DNA of 64,000 nt, taken from contig CBDAOB010000003.1 of the NCBI GenBank assembly GCA_965197905.1, forward strand, positions 736,001 through 800,000, given 5' to 3'. A program made the position numbers. The number at the start of each line of letters is the position of its first letter. Position 1 is the stretch's first letter. This document shows, in pieces, positions 27,001 through 36,000 of the stretch. The DNA comes from Candidatus Latescibacterota bacterium (lineage in GTDB: Bacteria; Latescibacterota; UBA2968; UBA8231).

Positions 27001-30000
27001 CTCTTGCCATTCGGCCGGGGCCCGCACATCGATCACCTGCAAAGCCTTCGACTGAAGTCGTTCTGACAACGTCGCGGCCGTGATGCGGTCCACCCTGCAG
27101 ATCAGCTCCTGTTTGGATTCGAGCGCCAGCATGCCGCTCTCCAAATACCCTGCTACCCCATCGAAGCCGATGCGTCCCAACCGCATCGCCGACTCTTCTT
27201 CGCGCCCGGGCTCGGCGATCAGTACGATCGGATCTTCGGCATCCAGCAGGGTGCCCGCCCATGTGGCATATTTTCCCTGGAGACCGACGTTGAGAGACCC
27301 CCTCCAGTGGGCGCCTGCGAACTCGGACGGCTCGCGGGTGTCGAGCAGAATAGCGCCTTGCTGCTGACGCTCGCAGACCTCATCTACAGACAGTCCCTTG
27401 AGCCCGTGACTGAGGGATGTGGCCAGCGTCGGATGTTCCCTGGTGTTCAAAATGGCGTCGTAGGTGAAATAGTCGGGGGTGTCCGGCTGATCGGCGGTGA
27501 CGATGCGAATGAACTCGTCCCTGCTCATCGGCTGCAGCGCATAGTTGTACTGGCGCTGGACGCCGATGGTAGAGACAGTGTCTTCGCTCATGTTCTTGCC
27601 GCACAGCGAGCCCGCTCCGTGTGCCGGATAGACCAGGGTCTCGTTCGGTAGCGGCAGCAGCTTTTGATGCACACTGTCGTACAACAACGCCCCAAGTTCA
27701 TCGGCGCTCCACCCCAACGCGGCGCGAAGATCCGGCCGGCCCACATCGCCAATGAAAAGAGTGTCTCCGGTGAGCACCGCATGGGGTTTGGTGTCATCCG
27801 CTTCCAGATCGTACACGAGAATCGAAATCGACTCGGGTGAGTGCCCGGGGGTCTCTAGAATCTGGAGTCGCACCTGGCCGAACTCGAGGGTGTCCCGGTC
27901 CTTCATCGGCGTAAACTCGTATTCCGCCTGCGCCCTAGATCCCAGATAGATCGTGGTACCCACCTGGTCCCTGAGTTCCAGATGCCCGGCCAGGAAGTCG
28001 GCGTGGAAGTGGCTGAGAAAGACGTGGCGAATCTCCATATCCAGGCTCTGCGCGTCTTCGAGGTAGCGGTCTATATCCCTTTGGGGATCGACAACGGCTG
28101 CAGTTCCGCTCTCCACATCGCCAATTAAGTACGAAGCGTGCGCGAGGCACCCGAGGTAGTACTGATTTAGGATCATGGTCCTCTCCTATCCAAAAACCCA
28201 AGAAATCCTGGGTTAAAGGTAGGTCGATCAGTCCGGCAAACAATCGAAGTTCTTAAAAATCCACAGCCGGCGCACGGTATTGACCCCCTGCCACTTCTTC
28301 TTCGCTGCTTCCCAGGCCTCGGGAAAGCTATCGCCCCAATTGTGCGCCGGCTCCCAACATCCGTTCTCTGCTTGTGCTTCGATTTCGAACGAGAGGTTTG
28401 CGGTGACCGCATCCTTGTGTTCGGAGAACAACCTGGAGTTTGGCGACGGAATTATCTCGAGGGGAGTGGTGCAGTAGGTGTGCCACTTGGTGGGATCCGT
28501 CTCGATGCTCCGATTCACGATTCCGGGAAGGTGTTTCTGCAACGCCTCCTCCAGAGAGCGGGGCAAAGATTCGACCTCGAACAGTCTGGTGTAACAAGCC
28601 AGATCGTGTACCTGCAGAGTTTCGATTGCAGGGAGACGATCGACTACGGCATCCAGCACCTCCTGCTGGATATCCGCGGTAGATCCGAAATTATACAGAT
28701 AGCCCAATACTTCGGGCCGTGGGTTATCTCGGTAGAAACTCCAGATCTCGTCGAAGTTTTCGGTATAGTGCCACCAGGGGGCGTGTGGTTTGCTGTTGTC
28801 GTGCGGCGTGATGAGCGGCCAGCTCTTGTACTTCTCAACGTAGGACTCAGCCAGAAAGTTCACGGCCTCCTGCGCCAGCTGGTGAGATTTGTCCAGCCCG
28901 AGTTCCATGAAGGTCTGCAGCGCGTGGGTGGTGCTGAGAACGTTCGGCTCGTTCGACCCGAAATCCGACTCGATGGCGCCGAATCCCCCATCCGCATGCC
29001 TGAACTCGGTCAACTCGTCAATAACCTGCTCGGGAGTTCCGCCTTCGAACAGAAACGAGAACTTCGCCTTCTCCAGGGGTCTGGCGTGCGCTTTGATGTA
29101 ACCGGCGGCCCTGTCGAACGCTTCGCGTGAAAACCGGGGCACCTTCGCCATGAGAATCTCCTCTCCCAACAATAAATCAACTGCCAAACGGTGGTTGGCA
29201 AATAATCATTACAACTTTCAAGCAGGTTCGCAATAGCAGACCTTGCCTTTGAGTCTCCTTAAGCGTATTATTCAACAATCTGGTTTTCTTTAGCGAACTA
29301 AATGGAGGTTCTATGACTGTCGGGGAATGTGCAACCCATTCAAAGAGATCCGCAACGCTGCGGTTGGGTCCGCTGATGCGCTCGACCGCTGAGGAATTCG
29401 GATCAGCGTTGCGTCGAACCTTGATGCGCTTGCCGGGTCTGGCCGCACGCGCCGTGAAAATGGAGGCGGCTCACGAATTCTCTTTGCTCCCGGGGGTCGT
29501 CGAGGACGCGCTAGAGATCGTGGAGAATCTAAGATTGATCCAGTTCCGGGGTGGCGATGGACCGCACTACGTGACCATCGATGTGGAGGGGCCGGCTGCA
29601 GTGACCGGATCGGATCTGGCTGGTCCCGGACTGCAGGTGGTGAACCCGAATCAACCGATTGCCACGGTGAATCACGGTGGACGCCTCGAAATGAAGGTTG
29701 AGGTGGCTCTCTCGTTGGATCGGGAATCAGGCCGAGACCGTCGCACCGGGGGTTTCCTGGAGGTCGGCGGCGTCTCTCATCCCGTTACTCGGGTGCAGCT
29801 ACACGTGGAAGAGCGCGATAAAGGGGCGTTCTTGAGCTTGAGCGTGGCGACCAACGGAAGCGTCGAGCCCCGGGTGGCCATCGATCAGGCGGCAACTCTG
29901 CTAGCGTCAGTAGCGACAGGCGAAAGGACTCGGGCCCTCTGCCGCCAGGTTTTGAACGCAAAGACGTTGTCGGAGCCGGCGACTAAGGCGCCACCTCCGG

Positions 30001-33000: not shown

Positions 33001-36000
33001 ACCTGCTCCAGGATGAATGCGGACTGCCGCGAAGAATGGCACGTTCTTTGTTCGCGCCATTCGTGGTCGGAGCCTTGTTGCGAGCCGGGAAAGCGAAGTC
33101 GGAAGAGGAGGCGCGCCGCATGATACGAGACGGGCGCGCCGAACGAGAGCTGGACGAGATTGCCTCGACGAAGCTGGTACTGCTACACCGGGCGCCGGTC
33201 CTGCACCGCTGGGGCATTCAAGCGTTCAAGCCGGTGTTGACCGAGGAGGAGGTTCTGCGGCTGCACCCGCTGACCAACGTGACCTTCAACGCCGACTTCG
33301 ACGGCGATGCGCTGGAGGTGTTCCTCCCTCTATCCGCTATCGCACAGCGCGAAGCGCAGGAGATGAGACCCACCAACAACCAGTTGGGCTCGGCCGACGG
33401 CACCTACATCCACGGCTTGAGCCAGGAGATGGTATTCGGTTGTTATTACGCGACCGCCGCGACCGCCACGGAGAAGCCGGTAATTGACCTCGCCAGCACG
33501 GACGCGGTGGCGGCCACCTTCGACCGCGGAGACGTGCGCATTCATGACCCGGTGAGAGTAATGGATGGGAGCTCACGCATTTCATCCGTGGGTCGCGTTT
33601 TGTTCGGTCAGCTGCTGCCGGATGGGTTGGAATGGACGGACGGGCAAGTCGACAAACGGGCACTGAAGGACCTGCTCGATCGGTGTTGGCACCAGTTGGG
33701 CCCCCCGTCTGCTGCCGAGCTGGCGAACGCAATGATGGTTTTCGGCTTTCGCATGGCAACCCGGTCAGGCGTATCGATCGGCAAAGACACCTATTCTCAG
33801 TTCAGCGGCTACGACGAGATGCTCGCCGCCGCGTGGCAGCGTGCGGACGAGCTCGCGGCCACCGACAACGACGAGCAAAGGATCGTCGATCACTGGATGG
33901 AAGTGCGTGATCGAATGACCGTGCAGGCGTTGGAAGAGCATGCCGCCATAGAGGACGGTCTCAATCCGACCCACATGATGGTTGTATCCGGAGCGCGGGG
34001 CAATTCGAATCAGCTGCTCCAGCAGATCGCCATGCGTGGTCTTTTTGTGCGCCAGGACGGTTCCCTTTATTCGATCCCATGTACGACCACCAACGTGCGG
34101 GGACAAAACCCGCTCGAGTTCCTTGCGGGGGTTGAAGGAGCACGCCGAGGTCTGGCGGATTGCACCTTGAAGGCTGCGCGCTCAGGATATCTCTTCAAGA
34201 GGATCGTCAGCTCGGTACAAGACGTGTTGATCACCGAGGAGAACTGCGGCACCGATGCCAGCCTGGAAAAACGGCCGCTCCGTGTGCGCCAGCGGGAAGT
34301 GCAAACGCTTGAGAACCGAATCGCCGGGCGGTTTGCCGCCGCCGATATCCTGTTTCCGGGAAGTAAAGCTCCGATCGTGGCGGCCGGGAACCTGATTGGC
34401 AGAGTTGAAGCTGCCGAGATTGGAGAAAGTGCCGTCGAGTCGGTTCTCGTTCGCTCGCCCATAACATGCGAATCCTCACGGGGCGTCTGCAGCAAATGTT
34501 ATGGGGTCGAGCTGAGCCGCTGGTCGCCGGCGACGGCCCACCTGCCGGTCGGTATCATCGCTGCCCAATCACTGGGCGAGCCGCTGACGCAGCTCACCAT
34601 GCGGTCGTTCACCTTGTCGATGCAGGGACAGCCTCCATCTGCAAACATCATCGCCAGCCTACCTGGACTGGAGGATTTGTTCGAGGCGGGCAAAAGACCC
34701 GGGAAGGAAGCATCGGAACTGCGAACCGCTCTGGTCGAGATGCTGGAGAAGGAAGGTTCGGGGTGCGCAGGAGCCTACCTTCTGGACGCGGTGCTCCTGC
34801 ACTATCGCAACATGGGAGTTCCCCTCGACGACAGACACCTGGAGATCGTCATCCGTCGGATGGTCCGTAGCGACGGGATCGACAGTGGACCGACTATCAG
34901 GGGCGTGACTGAAGTTGCGCGTCAGGGCAACGACTTCATGACGGCGGCGGTTTCCTTCGATGGAGTAGCCGCGCTGGCGCGGGCGGCCGCCAGCAGCCAA
35001 CGGATGCACCTGGATGGTGTGAGCAGCAGCACCGCTTTCGGCAAGCTTATGCCTGCAAGGGTCTAGGTCGAACGAGTTCGCGCAGACGGCACGCCCAATC
35101 CCAAACCATGCTCAAAAAGGAGACTTGACCCCCAGCTCCATGGCGATGCGCTCCAACGCCACCTGATGTTCGGGACCCACGGGAATCCCATGCCGGCGGT
35201 TCTCCTGCTCCCACCGCCATTCGGACCCCCCGGCCACTTCTGCCCCGTCTGACCCGGGCAAAGGCTCCAGAGTTCGGACCTCCGCGACGTACCGGTCCAC
35301 CGCCTCGCACAACTCGTCCAGCGGCATGAAGTGGCTGATATCGACGACCAGAATGAAGGATCCCTGGTTCGATTCCCATGGAGAATCTGGCGCTCGGAGG
35401 TCAGGCTGGTAGATCCCCGGGAATACCCCGCCCAACAGTTGAACGATGTTGCTCAGTCCCATGGCTTTAAAGAACGGAAACGGGTTTTCGACACATGAGG
35501 ATTCGTCGAAAGAGAGGAAGCTACTCCCCATGTCTAGAACTACCGGAGGTTGATTCTTCGTGGGGAACGCAACGCTTACGGGTGAATTGGTCACCGTGCT
35601 AAATATCGATTCTCCCGCTTCCCGGGAGGTCCGATGGGAGGACACCGCCATGCCGATGCAACCTGCCGACAGAGCCAAGCGAGTATAGTTACCGGCTGCC
35701 CCGAAATGATAGTGGTTTCGCGTTGTCAGCGCGGCAACGCCACTCGCCCGTGCTTTCGTTATCGCCCGCTGCGTACCCCGATAGCAAGGGAAATACCCCA
35801 ATCCTCCATCCCCGTCGATGACCAGGGCACCTGTTGACTCGCTGACGTCTCGAAGCTCGGGACGCGGATTCACGGCCCCTGTGGCTATCTTGCGAACATA
35901 ATCGGGAATCTGCAGCGTTCCGTGGCTGAACACACAGCGAAGATCGTTCGCTACGAGCAACTCACTCATCAGCAGCGCATCCTCGTGTGTGGTGCCGGCG

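Follow-up and report, generated by a model that had tools for sequence, protein, structure and literature searches.

A single-chain alpha-beta-beta' paralogue of RNA polymerase in a Candidatus Latescibacterota genome: a putative stripped-down accessory enzyme

Introduction

Can a bacterium with an ordinary multisubunit RNA polymerase carry a second one that is made as a single polypeptide? The question is raised by a gene in the window, the 64,000-nucleotide stretch of a Candidatus Latescibacterota genome that was analysed in this work (contig CBDAOB010000003.1, positions 736,001 to 800,000). The genome-wide survey's note had read this gene as encoding a second, nearly complete core RNA polymerase in one chain. 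One part of that reading stood: the product is a conserved alpha-NTD/beta/beta' paralogue with intact metal-binding motif, bridge helix and trigger loop. The other part, the near-completeness of the core, did not.

Results

The gene (Table 1) is one open frame, which starts with ATG, has zero internal stops and encodes 1917 amino acids (P0001); the coordinates include the stop codon. The promoter-like match lies in an AT-rich gap of 125 bp 5' of the gene, and it must be noted that the sigma-70-like consensus was found twice in the 6.5-kb region, with 1.1 matches expected from shuffled sequences.

Table 1. Features of the fusion gene and its upstream region (window coordinates)
Feature	Position	Strand	Basis
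Sigma-70-like promoter match: TTGCCT, 17 nt, TATTAT	29243..29271	+	consensus match only, weak evidence
Shine-Dalgarno GGAGG	29304..29308	+	read from sequence; 4 nt ahead of ATG
Whole gene, alpha-NTD/beta/beta' single chain P0001	29313..35066	+	frame, Pfam and NCBIfam scans
Alpha N-terminal domain (dimerisation plus insert), aa 1-200, without alpha CTD	29313..29912	+	RNA_pol_L, RNA_pol_A_bac
Alpha-beta connector, aa 201-235, Pro/Ala-rich, sequence varies across the family	29913..30017	+	family alignment
Beta N-terminal segment, aa 236-360 (own RpoB 17-155)	30018..30392	+	alignment
Short connector, aa 361-407, at the position of the canonical beta lobe (own RpoB ~156-396)	30393..30533	+	alignment
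Beta core through C-terminus, aa 408-1051: Rpb2_3, Rpb2_6, partial Rpb2_7	30534..32465	+	Pfam, alignments
Beta-beta' junction, aa 1052-1097, with remnant of beta' N-terminal strand	32466..32603	+	alignment
Shortened beta', aa 1098-1917	32604..35063	+	Pfam, alignments, AF2
NADFDGD metal-binding motif, aa 1326-1332	33288..33308	+	sequence, family alignment
Bridge helix, aa ~1600-1635	34110..34217	+	36-residue helix in AF2 model 2; aligns with canonical stretch
Trigger loop, aa ~1746-1796	34548..34700	+	alignments, AF2

Pfam and NCBIfam scans and alignment with the genome's own subunits gave the order alpha N-terminal domain, shortened beta, shortened beta'. The domain set listed by the survey was recovered in a fresh Pfam scan: RNA_pol_L (20-197) and RNA_pol_A_bac (52-138), both over the cut-off, in the alpha part, Rpb2_3 (423-485) and Rpb2_6 (622-968, E 4.6e-79) in the beta part, and Rpb1_2 (two stretches, best 1282-1351), Rpb1_3 (1359-1491), Rpb1_4 (1529-1578) and Rpb1_5 (1598-1769) in the beta' part. 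Rpb2_7 (978-1011) remained marginally below its cut-off (31.7 vs 32.1 bits), and the scan of the 1917-aa protein detected no Rpb2_1, Rpb2_2, Rpb1_1 or alpha CTD at E <= 0.1. The alpha domain is 31% identical to residues 30-220 of the genome's RpoA, and its AF2 model has a pLDDT of 88-95. The connector behind it is modelled by AF2 as short strands and one helix (204-214), with a block pLDDT of 68-93. The fork-loop/Rif-pocket stretch of the beta core is altered. Beta' retains a HIELA-like motif, a short lid-like stretch, a helical hairpin (1149-1188), the Rpb1_2 to Rpb1_5 regions and the C-terminal block. AF2 predicts a compact assembly for each of two overlapping 1200-residue stretches, 1-1200 (pLDDT 82.4, pTM 0.75) and 620-1819 (pLDDT 82.1, pTM 0.80).

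The two-barrel catalytic centre is retained. NADFDGD, reported by the survey as intact at 1326, was found there unchanged in 15 of 15 aligned family members; the beta motif GDK..RHG.KG is also kept, with the residues G833 to G844 invariant in the family alignment. The catalytic motifs are invariant among all 15 proteins of the alignment, which are 45-83% identical to the protein of the window, and the Asp triad, GDK..RHG.KG, RAPVLH and the bridge-helix and trigger-loop residues are, taken together, invariant or nearly so. The beta' double-psi barrel with NADFDGD is recognised by Rpb1_2 over the cut-off, Rpb2_6 is present, and the bridge helix and the trigger loop can be aligned with canonical and PDB chains. 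In the trigger loop the Met-Arg pair is retained, and the canonical His is replaced by Thr here and by Ala or Tyr in relatives.

Outside the catalytic centre the losses are extensive. Alignment showed that the protein lacks, relative to the genome's own RpoB, the lobe (about 156-396) and the flap-tip segment (about 20 aa, near aa 781), and relative to its RpoC the Cys-rich zinc region, whose Cys cluster is absent from the beta-beta' junction, some 120 further N-terminal clamp residues, the rudder and much or most of the jaw. A set of 15 canonical beta+beta' pairs has 533 invariant columns; in the fusion protein 270 of these are kept, 199 are changed and 64 are deleted, the changed ones including the trigger-loop His and an Arg-to-Lys replacement in the NMQRQA motif. 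With such losses, and barely half of these columns kept, to call the protein a nearly complete core was an overstatement. Where the canonical enzyme has an alpha2-beta-beta'-omega make-up with full-length subunits, there is one chain with a single alpha NTD, without alpha CTD and without omega. The loss of lobe, jaw, rudder and lid may weaken the holding of DNA. Sigma docks on the flap-tip helix of beta and the clamp helices of beta'. In each of the four reduced members that were aligned, a gap of 12-20 residues stands at the flap-tip position; AF2 does fold a clamp-helix hairpin, yet in a shortened form and with other residues in place of the canonical ones.

As the survey had noted, ordinary rpoA, rpoB and rpoC genes lie elsewhere, on contig C5. 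They exceed the NCBIfam equivalog cut-offs (score/cut-off: rpoC 1766.6/963.5, rpoB 1835.3/801.15, rpoA 377.2/227.8), whereas the fusion protein stays under all three (rpoB 638.8/801.15, rpoC 486.3/963.5, rpoA 93.7/227.8). The genome encodes two RNA_pol_L domains only, those of rpoA and of the fusion gene. In the trees the family branches on a long stem outside every canonical bacterial enzyme sampled, which rules out a recent copy of the host genes. We conclude that it is a rare, old family set apart from all canonical bacterial enzymes.

The survey's count of eight other proteins with the fused layout was too low. Besides several fragments, a search with query words taken from the whole length of the protein yielded 14 further full-length proteins that combine alpha, beta and beta' (1919-2003 aa, 43-83% identity). 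Six more are beta-beta' forms without alpha (1589-1712 aa), and three are larger fusions of alpha, beta and beta' (P0026, P0027 and P0030, 2338-2437 aa). Since six family members have no alpha domain, this domain may be dispensable. Among 1.84 billion representatives the alpha/beta junction was spanned by five 50%-identity clusters, and a match further in came from another two long proteins (2081 and 2241 aa). The survey's count for the phylum was reproduced: 3 of 167 other genomes have a long match (G098 with 83% identity over the full length, G150 with 50%, and G154 with the match divided over two contig ends). As the survey had stated, the G098 copy is more diverged than its neighbours (83% vs 88% amino acid identity; 97-98% for canonical RpoB/RpoC). 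The genus has two other genomes, of which one, 89% complete, lacks the gene. The layout is rare and apparently undescribed; our literature search, like that of the survey, found beta-beta' fusions only and none that includes alpha.

Discussion

Taken together, these results tilt us towards viewing the protein as a stripped-down, single-chain accessory RNA polymerase, whose activity we infer from its sequence and which has probably lost standard sigma docking. Such a protein would be a catalytically active, non-essential, DNA-dependent RNA polymerase, and its addition of ribonucleotides would follow the standard mechanism of two metals, bridge helix and trigger loop. With no flap-tip segment and a clamp-helix hairpin stripped of its canonical residues, the protein is unlikely to assemble into a holoenzyme of the standard sigma-70 type; initiation could take place either without sigma, by analogy with the phage single-chain enzyme YonO, or with some other partner. 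The single alpha domain would most likely serve as a built-in assembly platform on beta. A second alpha protomer, if used, could only be the host's RpoA, as alpha-type domains occur nowhere else in the genome. From the altered residues of the rifamycin pocket, insensitivity to rifamycins is predicted.

It is possible, although we consider it clearly less probable, that the protein does not polymerise at all and is a slowly decaying paralogue or a re-purposed, non-catalytic scaffold or decoy, whose partners would be DNA, regulators, antibiotics or phage anti-polymerase proteins. The gene is a real one on which purifying selection acts: compared with the G098 orthologue dN/dS is 0.219 at dS 0.43, and the values for the segments (0.16-0.37, with 0.37 in the alpha-beta connector and 0.32 at the beta-beta' junction) are all well below 1. 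The corresponding values are, however, 0.041 for canonical rpoB, 0.021 for rpoC and 0.13-0.17 for the neighbouring genes, thus the constraint on the fusion is 5-10 times weaker than on canonical rpoB/rpoC and slightly weaker than on its neighbours. This difference from the canonical genes (0.22 vs 0.02-0.04) would agree with such a reading, and the many changed or deleted invariant columns, the trigger-loop His among them, the rare and patchy occurrence and the lack of a conserved partner gene at the loci compared point in the same direction. Broken copies fit as well: in near-identical relatives the protein is found in two pieces (1-1010 plus 1012-1919; 1-341 plus 346-1919), and in a relative with 52% identity two parts of 1227 and 714 aa lie on one contig, which may reflect sequencing errors or decay. 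The stretch occurred in no RNA run, a result that counts neither way. On the other hand, there is no break in the 1917-codon frame of the window, of G098 or of G150, nor in that of 14 metagenome proteins, and the catalytic residues are held across 15 proteins down to 45% identity, which would be unexpected for a non-catalytic protein.

An unlikely explanation is that the gene is a captured polymerase of a phage, prophage or other mobile element (cf. YonO of SPbeta) and transcribes the genes of that element. The long stem, the patchy occurrence and the GC content of the gene (0.61-0.63, slightly above the 0.55-0.59 of the flanks) would agree with such an origin, as would the reduced or fused beta/beta' genes on IMG/VR contigs, four of which (L133, L168, L179, L181) carry fused ORFs of 2083-2841 aa. 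The surroundings of the gene speak against it. The flanking genes are ordinary (rhodanese/MBL, Ldh_2, glyoxalase, TonB-receptor) and differ at each locus, and no integrase, capsid or other mobile gene adjoins the fusion gene. The G098 copy is syntenic. The protein is 27-30% identical to phage enzymes but 35-45% identical to cellular beta/beta' over long stretches. Family-specific patterns found no relative in viral_contigs, PHROGs matched generic RNAP families only, and no PADLOC defence family was assigned to the fusion protein or four neighbouring proteins. By the checks of neighbours, PADLOC and viral patterns the gene does not belong to a mobile element.

That mis-assembly or frameshift errors joined separate rpoA-, rpoB- and rpoC-like genes, errors that metagenome-derived genomes can in general carry and for which we found no specific support here, is hardly conceivable and, as far as these data go, already refuted. 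Logan contigs of runs that belong to three other studies cover the gene and read across both junctions; within the ORF they show a single indel, the loss of 1 nt at 33055 in a low-depth contig of run X5. Family members have conserved junction sequences, and the layout is repeated in 14 other proteins of different sources and in G098 and G150. The open frame, the Pfam domains and the bridging contigs bear out the survey's description of a single-frame alpha-beta-beta' paralogue.

Comparison with known systems

It is instructive to compare the 1917-aa protein with known fused or reduced RNA polymerases. The rpoBC fusions of Helicobacter, Wolbachia and relatives (PRK09603 / PRK14844), such as the 2891-aa fused frame of Helicobacter muridarum (L061), likewise have beta followed by beta' in one chain. 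They are, however, the only, full-length, housekeeping subunits of their organisms and have no alpha, whereas our protein is a reduced extra copy with alpha. PRK09603 and PRK14844 were its best NCBIfam hits, far below the cut-offs (789.8/5372 and 741.9/4632). With these scores, the canonical rpoB and rpoC genes present and a position outside the canonical clade, to which the beta-beta' fusion P0029 belongs, we rejected assignment to this group.

The larger fusions P0026, P0027 and P0030 also start with an alpha NTD, continue with beta and beta' and lack the zinc-binding Cys region. What sets them apart from the reduced family is that the rudder and the beta lobe are retained and that the clamp-helix stretch resembles the canonical one; the only member scanned, P0026, scores above the equivalog cut-offs of rpoB and rpoC, and P0027 has an alpha CTD at its end. 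A common origin of the two groups was weakly rejected (AU p 0.035).

The RNA polymerases of jumbo phages, of AR9 and of a Caudovirales lineage (PMC7481178) share with our protein reduced beta/beta' subunits, the lack of an alpha2/omega platform and a branch that is deep relative to cellular enzymes; they are encoded on phage genomes and mostly consist of separate subunits. The identity of 27-30%, the separate group in the tree and the lack of a viral relative with family-specific patterns led us to reject this lineage.

Orf6 of the Kluyveromyces lactis plasmid pGKL2, an Rpb2::Rpb1 mini-fusion, and NCgl1702 of Corynebacterium glutamicum, a distant beta::beta' fusion, are, in the portion of the work cited, fusions of the two large subunits in which about half of the sequence is deleted and the two barrels are kept (PMC2919709). 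Orf6 is described there as eukaryote-derived, located on a cytoplasmic plasmid, 982 aa long and without an Rpb3/alpha part (PMC2919709). The genome studied here also has a 1019-aa copy of a widespread 1000-aa beta-beta' mini-fusion that is paired with an ECF sigma, and on this description Orf6 is closer in kind to that mini-fusion than to the 1917-aa protein.

YonO of the Bacillus subtilis prophage SPbeta is, in the cited sections, a phage-encoded single polypeptide of ~100 kDa, related to multisubunit RNA polymerases and very distant from the cellular ones, which needs no five-subunit core (PMC5467207). Our protein is about twice as large, chromosomal, 35-45% identical to cellular beta/beta' and includes alpha. 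On this account YonO, which we liken to it on function alone, is a precedent for a minimal enzyme that works without sigma.

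Results

The genome-wide survey's note had described one 1917-aa frame joining an alpha N-terminal domain (NTD) to shortened beta and beta' parts of RNA polymerase, with normal rpoA, rpoB and rpoC elsewhere. We could reproduce this description: the gene is a single open frame with an ATG start, the Pfam domains follow in the reported order, the NADFDGD motif is present, and Pfam detected no Rpb2_1, Rpb2_2, Rpb1_1 or alpha C-terminal domain (CTD) in the protein (Table). The genome (5 contigs, 6.69 Mb) has a normal rpoA and a normal rpoB-rpoC pair, both on contig C5; these reach the NCBIfam equivalog cut-offs, all three of which the fusion misses. 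A candidate omega gene lies at C1:21421-21567. Only rpoA and the fusion gene encode alpha-type dimerisation domains in this genome. The 125-bp AT-rich gap 5' of the fusion gene contains, besides the GGAGG, a weak sigma-70-like match.

Table. Positions of the fusion gene, its parts, its surroundings and related genes (aa, residues of the fusion)
Feature	Position	Strand	Remark
Fusion gene	window 29313-35066	+	1917 codons
Shine-Dalgarno-like GGAGG	4 nt before the ATG	+	from sequence
Alpha dimerisation and insert domains	aa 20-197		Pfam
Beta domains			Pfam: Rpb2_3, Rpb2_6 (E 4.6e-79), partial Rpb2_7
Altered beta residues	aa 435, 440; window 30618-30635		His to Gln, Ser to Val
Helical hairpin at clamp-helix position	aa 1149-1168, 1174-1188		AF2 helices
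Beta' domains			Pfam: Rpb1_2 to Rpb1_5
NADFDGD	aa 1326-1332
Hypothetical gene and MBL-rhodanese gene	upstream of fusion gene	opposite
Ldh_2	downstream of fusion gene	opposite
PcfJ-like gene	window 23009-25021	-	670 aa
FliG-type gene	window 24894-25940	+	FliG_N, FliG_M, FliG_C
M6 peptidase protein	window 41678-48778	-	2366 aa; FG-GAP repeats, ASPIC/UnbV, FlgD-Ig/secretion-tail end
IS1595-family transposase	window 49028-49897	+	adjoins the M6 peptidase protein
Beta-beta' mini-fusion	C5:903590-906646 = L009:7588-10647	-	1019 aa
ECF-type sigma gene	L009:10608-11204	-	directly precedes the mini-fusion, 40-nt overlap
Fused beta-beta' frames, IMG/VR contigs	L133:7728-14600; L168:7698-14603; L179:3894-12416; L181:7794-14042		2083-2841 aa

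The anatomy of the fusion was derived from its alignment to RpoA, RpoB and RpoC of the same genome and to two other canonical pairs; the domain names (lobe, flap tip, clamp, rudder, jaw, etc.) follow the literature. The first beta' residues were placed differently by the HMMER alignment to PDB chains and by MAFFT, and the family consensus favours MAFFT. The protein keeps the alpha NTD, the extreme N-terminus, fork, barrel, flap base and C-terminus of beta, and, from the start of beta', a remnant of the N-terminal strand, an HIELA..H.W-like motif and a short lid-like stretch; the clamp-helix position is taken by a helical hairpin. Also kept are RAPVLH, NADFDGD, the funnel, the F-loop, the bridge helix, both trigger-loop arms and the C-terminal block. 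Missing are the beta lobe (about 156-396 of the genome's own RpoB), about 20 residues at the canonical flap-tip segment of beta, the Cys-rich zinc region and the zipper (own RpoC about 30-94), about 120 more clamp residues (about 110-229), the rudder and much of the jaw (911-1176). With the flap tip gone and the clamp helices changed, a standard sigma-70-type holoenzyme is disfavoured.

A set of 15 diverse canonical beta+beta' pairs has 533 invariant columns; of these the fusion keeps 270, changes 199 and deletes 64, the trigger-loop His and the Arg of NMQRQA being among the changed ones. The mean proportion of canonical residues at these columns is 63% in the reduced family (the fusion and its relatives with the same trimmed beta-beta', with or without alpha), 81% in the larger fusions described below and 54% in phage enzymes. 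Two universally invariant beta residues are altered (Table), at positions which presumably are the main rifampicin-resistance sites, and the fork-loop stretch beside them is 4 residues shorter. Because these pocket residues are changed, the fusion is predicted to be insensitive to rifamycins.

Using family alignments, AF2 modelled residues 1-1200 with pLDDT 82.4 and pTM 0.75, and residues 620-1819 with pLDDT 82.1 and pTM 0.80. The stretch 955-1008 was poorly predicted without beta' and better when beta' was present, a behaviour that fits a normal beta/beta' interface. A Foldseek comparison of the first model with the PDB returned ordinary beta chains only, all single chains, with TM about 0.55-0.62. 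The predicted complex of the fusion's alpha NTD (1-236) with host RpoA (1-240) scored 0.04 (mark 0.32), which is evidence neither way.

The survey's note had counted 8 other proteins with the fused layout. The layout does recur, and the family proved to be larger: when the search was repeated with query words taken along the whole length of the fusion, it returned 14 full-length alpha+beta+beta' relatives (1919-2003 aa, 43-83% identity, 99-100% coverage), six relatives of 1589-1712 aa that have the same reduced beta-beta' without alpha, fragments, and the three larger fusions described below. A search with the alpha/beta junction, without word index, among 1.84 billion representatives found five clusters spanning it; two more long proteins, of 2081 and 2241 aa, match further in. 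The sole named member of the family is a "hypothetical protein" of Candidatus Latescibacteria. Within the phylum, a long match was again obtained in 3 of the 167 other genomes, all belonging to one family (3/75). No free-standing, unfused reduced beta' was found; the short matches P0406, P0407 and P0408 derive from the fused gene itself, as fragments or as halves of split copies, and the remaining matches of that search are ordinary beta' pieces (29-38% identity). Broken copies are P0125+P0127 and P0126+P0129, in the cluster of P0004, and also P0025+P0406: in some relatives, copies 99.6-100% identical to an intact one are split at a single point, and a relative with 52% identity is in two parts, of 1227 and 714 aa, on one contig. 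The split copies reflect either sequencing error or decay.

The contig scan with the family alignment picked universal motifs (FNADFDGD, NDDANRALM) and led to ordinary rpoBC loci, which were reused as named canonical sequences in the trees. In concatenated beta+beta' trees all canonical bacteria form one clade (support 100; 97 under the mixture model), in which Ignavibacteriota, Zixibacteria, Kryptonia and Bacteroidota are the companions of the genome's own enzyme. A long stem leads to the reduced family, which forms its own clade; since the beta-beta'-only forms nest inside it, alpha was secondarily lost or split off in them. As the reduced family lies outside the canonical clade, the fusion gene did not arise by a recent duplication of the host genes.

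Three larger alpha-NTD/beta/beta' fusions of 2338-2437 aa (P0026, P0027 and P0030, from metagenomes) retain the beta lobe, most of Rpb1_1, the rudder and a clamp-helix stretch of canonical-like sequence. In P0026, the member that was scanned, the scores exceed the rpoB and rpoC equivalog cut-offs, and P0027 ends with an alpha CTD after beta'. These proteins might be the sole polymerase of their organisms. They adjoin the canonical clade in the trees; they lay on one side of a branch together with the reduced family in the first tree, and apart from it once phage sequences were added. A single origin of the two kinds of alpha-fusion was weakly rejected (AU test, p 0.035), a result that is unsafe, as the group was chosen post hoc and the branches are long.

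Compared with G098, another genome of the phylum, in which the locus is syntenic, the fusion has a dN/dS of 0.219 (dS 0.43; 83% amino acid identity), compared with 0.021 for canonical rpoC (98%), 0.041 for rpoB (97%), 0.17 for the upstream hypothetical gene and 0.13 for the partial Ldh_2 (both 88%); the G098 copy is, as had been noted, more diverged than its neighbours. The individual segments have values of 0.16-0.37 throughout, the two connectors being among the highest. The fusion gene is under selection but probably non-essential. We favour, by a modest measure, the reading that the fusion is an accessory RNA polymerase and active, given that its active centre is conserved, its fold is predicted with confidence and selection has been purifying over a deep family. 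That it is instead a relic or decoy without catalysis seems rather unlikely to us; the trigger-loop His is replaced by Thr and the Arg of NMQRQA by Lys, and beside these changes stand the kept catalytic parts and a dN/dS well below one in every segment.

The fusion gene is solitary between opposite-strand genes; its neighbours in G150, in G154 and on three metagenome contigs are other ordinary genes. No sigma, second alpha, mobile or defence gene was linked to it at the loci compared, and PADLOC gave no defence-system match. An all-against-all comparison of the neighbouring ORFs, dominated by alternative-frame ORFs within the GC-rich gene, revealed no partner gene shared with the window; the sole match between neighbours was a small upstream ORF in L099 and G154. 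Family-specific patterns found no relatives on viral contigs, and true phage enzymes have only 27-30% identity to the fusion. A phage origin via the larger fusions was also considered and rejected: the best "viral" matches, L120 and L123, have separate canonical-like rpoB and rpoC. Capture of a polymerase from a mobile element is in our view quite improbable. An artefact is practically excluded, because both junctions are spanned by contigs assembled from short reads in runs of three studies, the sole indel within the ORF among them being a 1-nt deletion in one low-depth contig.

Some IMG/VR contigs carry fused beta-beta' frames (Table), and many other viral contigs encode the two subunits in separate genes, with reduced lengths of about 900 aa for beta and about 1030 aa for beta'. 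Elsewhere in the window, a lone FliG-type gene overlaps the start of a divergent PcfJ-like gene, and no other flagellar genes were seen among the nearby ORFs scanned; a large M6 peptidase protein is adjoined by a transposase gene.

A third polymerase-like gene of this genome encodes a single-chain beta-beta' mini-fusion with Rpb2_3, Rpb2_6, Rpb1_2 and NADFDGD, lacking the flap. Its family has 570 matches, of which the best 120 are all 1001-1068 aa long, come from several phyla and are all "hypothetical"; it occurs in 65 of 168 genomes of the phylum, this one included. An ECF sigma gene abuts it in 10 of the 14 loci examined, and we found nothing in the literature on such a pair, which may merit separate study. 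Otherwise open matches of the mini-fusion in G037, G039, G122, G124, G134, G136 and G142 contain a single in-frame TGA, which could be due to sequencing errors, read-through or recoding.

Discussion

Cells of this lineage might run up to three bacterial-type RNA polymerases: the standard five-subunit enzyme, a 1000-aa beta-beta' mini-enzyme with its ECF sigma, and the 1917-aa chain as a self-sufficient one-gene enzyme that would start without a sigma-70-type factor, be insensitive to rifamycins, and serve dedicated templates or stand in for the main enzyme during a block. We regard this scheme as speculative and, taken as a whole, unlikely. If the fusion is active, bacteria, like eukaryotes, can maintain several specialised polymerases of bacterial type, and work on minimal cells and orthogonal transcription would gain a compact polymerase of this type encoded by one gene. 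A conserved natural chain that includes alpha, and whose active centre has survived the loss of the lobe, flap tip, zinc region, rudder and jaw, maps the modules which evolution can remove from a bacterial-type enzyme, and the reduced family offers a direct way to ask what role the alpha platform has once beta and beta' are tethered.

The earlier paper searches had yielded beta-beta' fusions only, and this still holds: known natural RNA polymerase fusions join beta and beta', the present one adds alpha, and we found no description of a fusion including alpha, a novelty on which the survey of the bacterial transcription apparatus by Iyer and Aravind (2012) may bear. A five-subunit core is described as invariably common to multisubunit RNA polymerases (PMC5467207). 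In lacking the lobe, jaw, rudder and, save for the short lid-like stretch, the lid, the fusion is reminiscent of YonO and of the pared-down phage enzymes (PMC5467207; PMC2919709; PMC7481178). Unlike those enzymes, it is chromosomal, has retained one alpha domain and is much closer to the subunits of cellular polymerases.
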